Assembly (NCBI GenBank): GCA_018238155.1
Contig: JABCTZ010000026.1
Coordinates: 96,001 to 160,000 of the forward strand
DNA: 64,000 nucleotides
Source of the DNA: Candidatus Heimdallarchaeota archaeon
GTDB lineage: Archaea; Asgardarchaeota; Heimdallarchaeia; JABLTI01
Direction: 5' to 3'
Shown: piece after piece, positions 48,998-51,922 of the stretch
Position numbering within the stretch: position 1 is the stretch's first letter
How the letters are laid out: each line of letters starts with the position of its first letter
The notes under the pieces: model-generated
What the model saw: only the letters and a program-made list of their open reading frames with translations
Databases searched by the model: none
What the model was told of the DNA's origin: nothing
Program-made: the position numbers and the translations under genes

Positions 48998-50215
48998 ATG
49001 AAAAAAATAACTACAATTAATACTTTACTGGTATTTTTGGTTATCATTGGAACAATCTTTGCTAATTTGAGCACAGTAGTTTCAATAATGCCAAAACATG
49101 AAATGCAAATGATTAAGAGCAAAGTAGAGAATCAAGTTGTTGATGATATTGATAACGACTTTGGTTATGAACTTGTACTACAAATTGATACTTACTTCAG
49201 GAGGGAAGCGGATTTCAACAAAATCAAAATTTCAACTTCTGTCTATTCTACTGGTATATTATTTGAAATAGATAATTCATTAATAATTATTGGACATGGT
49301 TACTATGATTCAAATAATCAATATTATATAGCTGATTATTCAGCTAATAGAATAAGTCAAATGGCTGAAAATAAAGAATTTGTAGCTTTATTAGCTTGCT
49401 ATTCAGATAATATAGATTTGGTTAATGAGTTAACATTGACTTATGAAGGTAAAATTGACTTAAAATCTGCAGTTAATGAATTAATCAAAATCCTTGATTG
49501 GAATCAGAATTCCAAATTTATTCCTATAAAAAATATCAGATTATTTGATCTTGATCCTGGCGGGGGTGGAGGACCAGTTCTATCCAGACATTATCAAAAT
49601 GGCATATGCTATGCATATACTGGTGCTGATGATGGCCATTATTGGAATCTAAATACACAAGCTGGTTTTTATGGTGCGGGTAATTGGTTGATGAGCCACA
49701 AAGGATATATTGCTGAGGTTTACGTTTCAGATTATTACTACGAAAAAATAGGTGAAAATACTTACAATTTGGTTTTCTCAGAAACAACTTATATTACCAA
49801 AGTTACAACAAAAAGCGATACATTGGACTATTTAAACATGGATGACATTGTTATTAATGGAGAATCTATAAATGACCATTACGAAACTAAAATCAATGGT
49901 TTAATAATTGTACTTGATAATGATCAAATCCTTGCTGGTATAGTTATTACTGCTGTTTTTGCATTAGTTTCTACATTAGTAACCGTAGGAGCCACTTTAT
50001 TGAAAGTTGGCTTAGCTCCAGTTGTTAAAGAAATATCAGTTACTTTAGCTGCAGCTGAAGCAGCAAATCTTGGTTTGGTGGCTGGTACATATACTTATAC
50101 TTACACAACAATAGCATCACTTACAATGACATTAATTGGTGTTACTTTATTAGTAATTGCAGTATTAATTATTGCAGGTGCAATTATATTTGGTATGTAT
50201 TACTTACAAAATTAG
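48998..50215 (+). CDS. Secreted caspase/CHAT-like protease fused to a hydrophobic C-terminal domain (candidate polymorphic toxin precursor)
   Basis: Signal peptide; LIIIGHG (H100), VALLACYS (C134), TYEGKID, FIP..LFDLDPGGGGG; C-terminal Ala/Gly/Thr-rich hydrophobic helices. Confidence 0.7.
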   Translation: MKKITTINTLLVFLVIIGTIFANLSTVVSIMPKHEMQMIKSKVENQVVDDIDNDFGYELVLQIDTYFRREADFNKIKISTSVYSTGILFEIDNSLIIIGHGYYDSNNQYYIADYSANRISQMAENKEFVALLACYSDNIDLVNELTLTYEGKIDLKSAVNELIKILDWNQNSKFIPIKNIRLFDLDPGGGGGPVLSRHYQNGICYAYTGADDGHYWNLNTQAGFYGAGNWLMSHKGYIAEVYVSDYYYEKIGENTYNLVFSETTYITKVTTKSDTLDYLNMDDIVINGESINDHYETKINGLIIVLDNDQILAGIVITAVFALVSTLVTVGATLLKVGLAPVVKEISVTLAAAEAANLGLVAGTYTYTYTTIASLTMTLIGVTLLVIAVLIIAGAIIFGMYYLQN

Positions 50216-50223
50216 GAGTTGAT

Positions 50224-50682
50224 ATGATGAAGGATGTAAATATCATAGAACTAAATAAACTACATCTCGAAAATGAGCAACAGGTAATAGCTAAGGAACG
50301 ATTTGAATTCATAATGAAATTTTACTTAATTGTATTTTTCATTGCTTCATTTATTTCAATGTTAATAACGATAATTGGTGGAATATTAATTGGAATTGAA
50401 ATTAATTTTCTGGATCCATATTTAATCTTAATACTATTATCACTACCACTACTAATCTTCATAACAAATCTATTAATCTATTTACTTCCTATCATCAAAT
50501 TAAAACCAAATAAAAACGAACCATTTTATGGTATTAACTTTATCAAAATAGTAGAAGAACAAAAAAAACCTACTATGATTAAATATTTGATTAGAAAAAT
50601 CTTTCTAATCACTTTTTCTATTTTAGGAATTATCTCTACATTAGGAAATATCATTCTTTTTATTGTAGAAATTATAATCTAA
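50224..50682 (+). CDS. Small 3-TM membrane protein, candidate cognate immunity protein
   Basis: Starts 8 bp after the precursor stop; paralog of 51470-51922. Confidence 0.6.
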   Translation: MMKDVNIIELNKLHLENEQQVIAKERFEFIMKFYLIVFFIASFISMLITIIGGILIGIEINFLDPYLILILLSLPLLIFITNLLIYLLPIIKLKPNKNEPFYGINFIKIVEEQKKPTMIKYLIRKIFLITFSILGIISTLGNIILFIVEIII

Positions 50683-50963
50683 TAGTTCAATCTATTTATT
50701 CTACCTTCTTTTATTTTATACCCCCACAATACTCAACTTTTTTTGGAATTACTCTGTTATTTTTTATAATTAAATAGTAATAAACCTGCTTCTAGAAAAA
50801 ATCTATTCCTCTTTACTATACTATATAACTCTGTAGGACAGATTAGTGAAGATTGTTAGAGCAAATTTACTAATAAAATAACAAAAAAATAAAATCACAA
50901 AAAGATACTTTTATTATCTACATAGGATTTGCAATTATTCAGCTACTGTTTCTTATACTTTCA

Positions 50964-51305
50964 GTGATTCTTCGAAATGGAACAGAAAATAAATTTCATG
51001 ATGAAATTGCCATACTAAATCAAAATTACTATTACACATTTTCGTTCTTTATGCGTCTTGTAACTTTTCTATTTTTCTTGGCAATTTTAATTTATATCAG
51101 CTTTTTAGGCTCTGAAATTAAATGCATAAAAAATATTGCTCTGGATGAAATTGACTTTGGAAATGCATTAGAAGAGATGTTTAACTCTACACGCCAAAAA
51201 TTCAAAAAAAGAAGAATTCTCTTATTGGTTGTCCTATTACTAGGATTTCTTGTGATAATTGGATCTCAAATCTATGTGCAGATTGGCATATTGTTTTTGT
51301 TATAA
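50964..51305 (+). CDS. Small membrane protein or gene fragment in the toxin/immunity cluster
   Basis: 113 aa, two hydrophobic segments, weak start. Confidence 0.4.
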   Translation: MILRNGTENKFHDEIAILNQNYYYTFSFFMRLVTFLFFLAILIYISFLGSEIKCIKNIALDEIDFGNALEEMFNSTRQKFKKRRILLLVVLLLGFLVIIGSQIYVQIGILFLL

Positions 51306-51356
51306 CCTATTTTGGAAGGTTATTCTTCTAAATTTTTTTGGGTTAGCTTCAATATA

Positions 51357-51467
51357 TTATTAAAGCTAGTTGAATTTGGAATTTACACTGGTATAGTGAT
51401 TGTAGTAATTGCAGTGGTTTTAACAATTGGAGCATGTATAATTTACTTTGTCCAAAAATACAGTTAG
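51357..51467 (+). pseudogene. Orphan C-terminal tip of a precursor-like gene
   Basis: ..GIVIVVIAVVLTIGACIIYFVQKYS* resembles GVTLLVIAVLIIAGAIIFGMYYLQN* and shares tagtaattgcagt with ~50151; the stop is followed 2 nt later by the ATG of the immunity paralog. Confidence 0.55.
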
Positions 51468-51469
51468 AG

Positions 51470-51922
51470 ATGATAAATTTGTCAACAAAATCAGAAAACG
51501 AAATCTATCGTACACAAGAATTAGCTTCAAAAATGTACTTTATTGTAATGATATTTTTGTCAATATTTGTTATGATAGCCTTCTTTCTTCTTTTCATTTA
51601 TTTTAACAATTATGAAGAAAGATTTAATGCATTAGATTTCAAATATGAAATAAGTATTTCAATCACAATTATAATACCAGTAATTCTATCGTTGCTCACT
51701 TTGATAATTTACATGAATCCATTGATTTCATATTTAGTGGGAATAAACAAGAAAGATAACGGCTTAATTGATTTCAAAGCCATTATGAAAGAACAATCGA
51801 ATCCTACAAAAAAGAGCTATAAAATTAGAAATTATCTAATTGTAATTCTTTTTCTTCTAACAATATTAACAATTATTGCTTCTTATGTCTATTTTTATAT
51901 CATAATATTTTTCTTGCTATAA
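51470..51922 (+). CDS. Small 3-TM membrane protein, paralog of 50224-50682 (candidate orphan immunity protein)
   Basis: LIIYMNPLI..IDFKAIMKEQSNPTKKSYKIR versus LLIYLLPII..INFIKIVEEQKKPTMIKYLIR; likely start ATG 51470. Confidence 0.65.
   Translation: MINLSTKSENEIYRTQELASKMYFIVMIFLSIFVMIAFFLLFIYFNNYEERFNALDFKYEISISITIIIPVILSLLTLIIYMNPLISYLVGINKKDNGLIDFKAIMKEQSNPTKKSYKIRNYLIVILFLLTILTIIASYVYFYIIIFFLL

Follow-up and report, generated by a model that had tools for sequence, protein, structure and literature searches.

A putative polymorphic membrane cassette with a His/Cys head domain in the genome of a Heimdallarchaeota archaeon

The cassette, its island and its relatives

The DNA analysed here, referred to below as the window, is a stretch of 64,000 nt from a Candidatus Heimdallarchaeota archaeon, corresponding to positions 96001-160000 of the contig JABCTZ010000026.1 (C20); the genome to which it belongs, labelled G000, comprises 4.08 Mb and is 90.7% complete. 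The subject of this work is a cassette in the window consisting of a gene for an exported protein of 405 amino acids (aa), which we call the family-A gene (48998-50215, + strand), followed by genes for small membrane proteins. An earlier reading of the window, made from the sequence alone (the original prediction), had described in the 405-aa product a signal peptide, the motifs IIIGHG (H100), VALLACYS (C134) and TYEGKID, and a glycine-rich linker. This open reading frame (ORF) is real, its coordinates were borne out, and H100 and C134 are spaced by 34 residues. The protein can be divided into the signal peptide (aa 1 to about 30), a head containing the His and the Cys (about 48-185), the linker DLDPGGGGG, a beta domain (about 200-305) and a hydrophobic helical tail (about 306-405). 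On the DNA, the head domain occupies 49139-49546 (+), with the codons of H100 and C134 at 49295-49297 and 49397-49399, respectively; the linker lies at 49547-49573 (+), and the variable tail region, comprising the beta-rich domain and two long hydrophobic helices, at 49595-50212 (+).

As had been predicted, a gene encoding three transmembrane (TM) segments starts 8 nt past the stop codon of the family-A gene. This cognate partner gene, P1 (50224-50682, +), encodes 152 aa. The paralog of P1 predicted further downstream was likewise confirmed as P3 (51434-51922, +; 162 aa, three hydrophobic segments, likely true start at ATG 51470), which matches P1 with a BLASTP E value of 3e-6 (28% over 75 aa). 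Between these two genes lies a third partner-like gene (50964-51305), which had gone unrecognised. The frame of this orphan partner gene, P2 (50877-51305, +), is open from 50877, and since it contains no ATG, GTG or TTG before 50964, its N-terminus appears to have been lost. An ORF of 51 aa with a single TM segment (51312-51467, +) is of uncertain status; derivation from a degraded family-A tail was considered and rejected, as phmmer gave no significant match.

The whole cassette is carried by an accessory island of about 4.0 kb (48377-52350, approximately 3,975 bp), which is flanked on the left by thrC (46798-48006, -) and on the right by an acetyltransferase-like gene (52354-53559, -). The island is absent at the same site in congeners, the gap between thrC and the acetyltransferase-like gene being only 73-140 bp in the same-genus genomes G123, G190 and G199. 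Neither terminal repeats nor a target-site duplication were found at the island ends, and there are no integrase, phage, secretion or delivery genes among the island ORFs. The DNA adjoining another family-A locus of the same genome, on contig C44, resembles the right end of the island. The island is supported as a strain-specific locus that behaves as mobile DNA. One family-A cassette of the complete genome G074 has a transposase-like ORF (L016, 1-1167, -) immediately upstream of it.

Family A is small and narrowly distributed. A search of 1.84 billion proteins yielded only 34 cluster representatives, with one relative labelled Heimdallarchaeota, and the family is present in 5 of the 201 sampled genomes of the phylum, all within one class; no bacterial relatives were found, and literature searches turned up no description of the family. 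The genome studied here harbours six copies. A gene of 128-161 aa with three hydrophobic helices stands directly after every family-A gene examined, that is, the six copies of this genome, two in G074, one in G123, and those on the contigs L067 and L068. These partners have the common motif EQxxPTxxxYKxRKxF before the last helix. One relative, P0029, consists of the linker and a family-A tail behind a different N-terminal part, without the head.

The family-A gene of the window is preceded by a leader (48883-48997, +) made up of tandem 15-bp repeats TCTTCACTAAACTTT (48943-48972 and a partial third copy), then AAAGGAATGATAAGAAA and the ATG. A leader with 2 to about 7 copies of TCTTCACTAAACTTT or its variants precedes all six family-A paralogs, two genes that we call X genes, and one more secreted-protein gene (C4:109383-109557, C43:59649-59703, C45:90-144, C44:2-109, C4:112479-112533, C10:2965-3092, C10:7-61, C26:34941-35084 and C21:228238-228288). 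This leader is possibly a regulatory or phase-variable element that these genes have in common. Several contigs break inside the leader, and a spurious extension of a C4 ORF with FLHES repeats is the translation of the leader repeats. The two X proteins, of 410 aa (C4:111246-112478, -) and 413 aa (C10:62-1303, +), begin with a signal peptide, immediately behind which stands LDPGDSGNGDGDAD, so that LDPGDSGNG adjoins the signal peptide, and continue with beta-rich domains. At two loci the gene order is X, an LVIVD-like beta-propeller gene, family A and partner. Within this genome, LDPG with a Gly-rich run was found only in family-A and X proteins.

The His/Cys head and its probable fold

The motifs of the head are not chance matches: G99-H100-G101, C134 and S136 are invariant in all 32 family-A members that cover them. 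When 29 heads of four architectures were aligned, only H-G and C-x-S remained invariant. The His precedes the Cys throughout, and the pattern of a hydrophobic strand with HG and a hydrophobic strand with (A/S)C-x-S, written as hhhhGHG and hhh(A/S)C(Y)S, holds in every case.

A first structure prediction by AlphaFold2 (AF2) from 10 sequences was poor (predicted local distance difference test score, pLDDT, 54). With 33 sequences, a model of aa 48-306 was obtained with a pLDDT of 86.7 and a predicted template modelling score (pTM) of 0.77. The modelled head begins with a helix and three short strands, the third of which ends at H100; after a small hairpin and a second helix, the next strand stops at C134, and a further strand and a helix complete the domain. 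Together, the His strand, the second helix and the Cys strand make up the kind of beta-alpha-beta unit found in caspases. The best match of the model by VIA-align, among 48,161 chains, was the SAVED-CHAT protein 8tl0_A (Z 6.2, 111 aa, root-mean-square deviation 3.8), and 13 of the approximately 31 rows covering the head belong to the peptidase clan CD, as judged from the entry titles. They include legumain (5obt and 4aw9; Z 5.1), the AEP ligase 5h0i, caspase-3 and -8, Dronc, separase (two entries), metacaspase 4, Craspase CHAT and DdvA, the caspases having Z values of 4.4-4.5. In an additional structure search the MARTX cysteine protease domains (CPDs) 8yjc, 3eeb and 3fzy were matched at Z 3.8-4.2, and MALT1 was also matched. 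The top row of a structure search of the ESM Atlas was a CHAT cluster (TM score 0.37/0.47), and a feature search of the same resource gave weak leads only (DUF6345 0.87, CHAT 0.85, DUF6642 0.85).

The original prediction had proposed a caspase-like fold. With clan-CD neighbours topping the structure rows, this is the best available reading, and the model makes it fairly likely that the head has a reduced clan-CD (caspase/CHAT-like) fold; no match by Foldseek or by sequence profile, however, was significant. Because no sequence profile reaches significance, we grade the head as having a probable fold, not as belonging to a family. The likeness to clan CD (in MEROPS: caspases, metacaspases, legumain, separase, CHAT and the C80 CPD) consists in the order of His-Gly and then (Ala/Ser)-Cys after hydrophobic strands and in the beta-alpha-beta unit. 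The head differs from clan CD in its extracellular location in an archaeon, and the C-x-S and LT(Y/F)xGxID motifs are peculiar to the head.

Several observations weigh against this assignment. With only about 125 residues the head is short, and ahead of the His its three strands run as an antiparallel meander instead of making up beta-alpha-beta units of the caspase type. The Z values of 4-6 fall in a range shared with unrelated alpha/beta sandwiches (frataxin, Z 5.0), and every Z is below 8, the level that the tool takes as convincing. A Foldseek search with the model gave no match at E <= 0.001 against the PDB, and none at the same threshold against viral models. No peptidase family was matched by the 405-aa protein in a Pfam scan, there being no thresholded Pfam or hidden Markov model (HMM) match for the head; one of the 33 members matches Peptidase_C80 (PF11713) with an E value of 0.025, below the family cut-off. 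A sequence-profile search of the PDB returned 0 matches at E <= 10. Alignment by hhalign against 21 Asgard CHAT domains gave a P value of 0.044 and a probability of 1.2%, pairing His with His and Cys with Cys. A word-indexed search of longer proteins with the head profile found only relatives lacking Pfam domains and no bridge to a known family.

The head might instead be no peptidase, its His and Cys binding metal or having a structural or ligand role and the Gly-rich segment being a hinge and a recombination hotspot. We regard this as conceivable rather than probable. The failure of sequence profiles to join the head to clan CD, the modest Z values with similar frataxin-like sandwiches, and the atypical topology before the His are what such a domain would give, but the exact HG and (A/S)C-x-S pattern is invariant over very divergent architectures, and clan CD accounts for so many of the head matches. 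Such a head could be accommodated in each of the functional models considered below.

The same motifs occur at a second locus in the window, with which the original prediction had compared the 405-aa gene. The family-B gene (2068-3168, -) encodes a signal peptide, a His/Cys head, the sequence DLDDGLGGG and a multi-TM tail. Its motifs GHG (H83) and CYS (C117) with the same 34-residue spacing, its unrelated multi-TM C-terminal half and the different membrane gene downstream of it (1108-1992, -; 294 aa, about six hydrophobic segments, no Pfam match) all stood, but the locus is not one open frame. An in-frame TAG (2929-2931) lies immediately before VGHG, whereas the five intact family-B paralogs of the genome read IWIGHG, with a TGG-encoded Trp at the position of the TAG; a TGG codon has thus been turned into TAG. 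TAG ends 361 of the 1617 long ORFs of the genome and is thus an ordinary stop, and a search of the genome, at its 90.7% completeness, for PylS gave none above the cut-off. On these grounds a pyrrolysine reading of the TAG was rejected, and the copy at the second locus is considered broken.

A direct comparison of the family-A and family-B loci was insignificant (BLASTP E 0.052), and a profile of the family-A head/ectodomain found two family-B copies, over the head, with E values of 3e-4 and 5e-4. The second locus is therefore not the like-for-like comparison that it had been taken for; it is a nonsense-mutated member of a separate, remotely related family. The genome contains six family-B copies. 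Every one is adjoined by a gene of 283-300 aa with 6-7 TM helices, which lies directly downstream in five cases and is divergent on C43.

Other proteins also carry the head. An HMM search of the same genome detected it N-terminally in large TSP3-repeat proteins. An ORF of genome G136 (L018, 1216-2652, +), at least 479 aa in length and without a Pfam match, has a signal peptide and the head (LVIIGHG, HFLACYSS), followed by a large region with HEISHLYGASH, a metzincin-like HExxH motif, and a TSP3-like DTDPDGDG repeat. L018 represents a further type of cargo for the head.

The linker junction and the exchange of tails and partners

The claim that similarity between homologs collapses after the DLDxGG linker proved correct. 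Mean identity among eight cassettes is 44% in the head, 23% in the beta domain, 19% in the TM tail and 20% in the partner. The change takes the form of a step and not of a slope: against the copies on C4 and C43, the G123 copy shows 75-95% identity as far as residue 180 and 30-35% from residue 181, a drop from about 80% to about 35% at the linker. Between C4 and C43 there is a second step near residue 290-300. The linker is thus a mosaic or recombination junction, and it may also be where the protein is processed. Of the 32 members, 30 retain D186 and all have G188, and the linker has a pLDDT below 50 in the AF2 model. With Pro, Ser or Ala next to it and Gly after that, D186 would be plausible as the P1 site of a peptidase (not to be confused with the partner gene P1). 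One family-B copy has Asn at the equivalent position, which in our view would fit a legumain-type specificity for Asn and Asp.

Family-A tails are not unrelated to each other, being divergent homologs with a beta domain and a TM hairpin common to the family. The beta domain (aa about 200-305) is without a clear relative, the best being the fHbp barrel (Z 5.2-5.4). In the window protein the hydrophobic stretches of the tail cover aa 302-343 (42 residues) and 369-405 (37 residues); Ala, Gly, Ser and Thr make up 39% of the tail, which contains six small-xxx-small motifs.

Comparison of the window with the G123 cassette gave identities of 58.5% for the head part and 25% for the tail. Of the partners, each compared with the cognate partner of G123, P1 is 22.6% and P2 58.4% identical. 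At the DNA level, similarity to G123 extends over the leader and the head, stops at window position 49561 inside the linker, and resumes across P2. The simplest reading of this pattern is that a new module of tail plus P1 displaced an older one, whose partner, P2, stayed behind.

The original prediction had further proposed that the downstream gene co-varies with the C-terminal part. The partner is always adjacent, and in three informative comparisons (G123, L067 and L068) it tracks the tail, not the head. The tail of L067 is the most similar to that of the window (44%; partner 41%, head 55%), and L068 follows with 38% in the tail and 35% in the partner at 72% in the head; the head identities do not predict the similarity of tail or partner. 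With the head controlled for, tail and partner correlated at r 0.26 (p 0.047) in a partial Mantel test on ten cassettes. Against co-variation stands the weak raw correlation between tail and partner (Spearman 0.07 over 45 cassette pairs), its weakness being due to saturation of most pairs at 20-30% identity. Given this weak raw correlation and a Mantel p of 0.047, the co-variation is suggestive only. Complex prediction for the tail (aa 200-405) with the partner scored 0.01 against a mark of 0.32; this gives no verdict and is used neither way.

Partner genes and tails also occur outside complete cassettes. Lone partner genes were found elsewhere in the genome on C7 (277719-278114), where the gene carries one TAG, and on C28. 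The C7 gene and the TAG-broken family-B copy look like decaying copies. On C29 (77864-78732, -), a chimeric ORF of 144 aa matches the last approximately 115 residues of the full-length family-A member P0019 (E 3e-34), its first approximately 45 residues coming from a PLD/HKD-like gene with paralogs at C29:97600-98154 and C29:73260-73817, and a partner gene lies directly after it. The C29 locus is an orphan tail-plus-partner module inserted into another gene. Orphan immunity genes and orphan modules are features of polymorphic toxins, and P2, P3, C7, C28 and C29 provide counterparts of them here.

Possible functions of the cassette

We tentatively favour the view that this is a lineage-specific, mobile and polymorphic two-gene membrane cassette that acts like an effector-immunity pair, a view that we would place a little short of probable. 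It is favoured because the extra, decaying and orphan partners and the exchanged tail-plus-partner modules resemble the behaviour of immunity genes. The family-A protein would be exported by way of its Sec-type signal peptide. Its head, most likely a stripped-down clan-CD cysteine peptidase with a releasing or processing role, would cleave, in cis or in trans, at D186 or close to it; the tail would damage or mark a membrane, and the 3-TM protein P1 would be the specific membrane partner that neutralises the tail.

In polymorphic toxins, a caspase-like domain placed immediately ahead of the variable C-terminal domain is known to act as the releasing peptidase; in archaea such systems are generally scarce (PMC3482391). 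The cassette resembles polymorphic toxins of this kind (PMC3482391) in its conserved N-terminal part, its variable C-terminal part with a mosaic junction, the adjacent gene that tracks the C-terminus, the orphan partners, the orphan tail-plus-partner module and the patchy distribution on islands. It is unlike them in having no recognised toxin or immunity domain and no delivery module of the T5, T6 or T7 (type V, VI or VII secretion) or PVC (Photorhabdus virulence cassette) kind, in being archaeal and apparently native to Heimdallarchaeia, and in that the variable part is an integral membrane tail. With the CPDs of MARTX and large clostridial toxins (Peptidase C80) the head would share the character of a small clan-CD domain, thought to cut in cis, in an exported multi-domain protein. 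Inside eukaryotic cells, inositol hexakisphosphate activates those CPDs, which cleave after Leu; here the PF11713 match is below cut-off, and nothing suggests such activation or cleavage after Leu. Pore-forming colicins have immunity proteins with 3-4 TM segments, and the membrane-active effectors of contact-dependent inhibition (CDI) and of the type VI secretion system (T6SS) have membrane immunity proteins. The cassette is like all of these in pairing a hydrophobic hairpin with a small polytopic membrane protein directly downstream; on the other hand, it resembles colicin pore domains neither in sequence nor in fold, and its tail ends a Sec-exported, probably membrane-resident protein.

Further points count against an effector-immunity pair. 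The C-terminal toxin domain that had been expected was recognised neither by Pfam nor by fold search, leaving the tail without a recognisable one. The Pro after D186, at the P1' position, would make a poor caspase site. The hydrophobic helices should anchor the tail in the membrane of the producer, and there is no evident route of delivery to another cell.

The last point bears on the model of the original prediction, in which a self-cleaving secreted precursor frees a diffusible toxin against other cells and the producer is shielded by the 3-TM protein. All of the evidence for polymorphism applies equally to this model, as do the conserved D186 and the richness of the tail in small residues, but a Sec signal together with hydrophobic stretches of 42 and 37 residues points to co-translational insertion in the producer's membrane, the island lacks secretion and delivery genes, and no toxin fold was found. 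If Sec inserts the two-helix tail into the membrane of the producer, cleavage at the linker would free the head and not a diffusible effector. A diffusible membrane-inserting effector is thus unlikely as stated, the tail being expected in the producer's own membrane, and we consider the model as a whole doubtful.

A pair for self/non-self recognition or adhesion identity, in which tail and partner would form allele-specific membrane complexes, would not be a toxin system. IdsD and IdsE, the identity proteins of Proteus, offer an analogue for such complexes. The membrane-embedded helices of tail and partner are the most variable parts of the cassette, both proteins are membrane-resident, and the family is multi-copy and patchy, all of which would suit recognition; yet extra and decaying partner arrays and orphan modules are more typical of immunity genes, and the conserved, catalytic-looking head would be left without a role. 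We think this unlikely.

The occurrence of the head on L018, with its HExxH motif, and on TSP3-repeat surface proteins raises the alternative of a membrane-anchored protease for surface processing, whose head would trim or attach exported LDPG-Gly proteins, with the tail as a mere anchor and the partner as a regulatory or anchoring subunit. The two X proteins, which combine LDPGDSGNG with the same leader, and P0029, with linker and tail but no head, would find a place in such a scheme. Strain-specific islands, mosaicism at the linker, a hypervariable anchor and partner, and absence from most relatives are nevertheless unexpected for housekeeping enzymes, and we hold this alternative to be decidedly unlikely. 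Very improbable, finally, is a self-acting module of a mobile element (addiction, abortive infection or superinfection exclusion), in which the tail would permeabilise the host's own membrane unless checked by the partner: the island does behave as mobile DNA, a transposase-like gene lies beside one G074 copy, and the problem of delivery is removed, but there are no integrase or phage genes among the island ORFs, the viral fold library gave no match (the PADLOC defence library was not searched), and an exported, extracellular head is ill-suited to sensing events inside the cell.

The effector-immunity reading can be extended to a bolder proposal, to which we lend only limited credence: that Heimdall-group Asgard archaea evolved a polymorphic effector-immunity system of their own, without bacterial ancestry. 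In such a system a miniature clan-CD head would autoprocess an Asp-Pro/Ser-Gly linker and so arm a membrane-active tail, tail-plus-partner modules would recombine at the linker, and head and linker would also launch the family-B multi-TM, HExxH and TSP3-repeat cargo. Hardly any systems of conflict or recognition between cells are known from Asgard archaea, which among prokaryotes are the nearest relatives of eukaryotes. If the effector-immunity reading is right, a native, multi-copy and recombining effector-partner cassette with a caspase/CHAT-like head would be new for Heimdallarchaeia and a first handle on competition or recognition between their cells. The minimal version of the caspase fold, of about 125 residues, would also be new, as would a membrane-protein pair that apparently has its specificity written into the transmembrane helices. 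Should the pair prove not to be toxic, its abrupt mosaic boundary and its orphan modules still make it a clear example of how proteins evolve by modules.

Beside the family-B locus lies a possible restriction-modification gene, an ORF of 804 aa (3281-5695, -) in which an NPPF motif characteristic of N6-adenine DNA methyltransferases (Eco57I-like) can be made out by eye.

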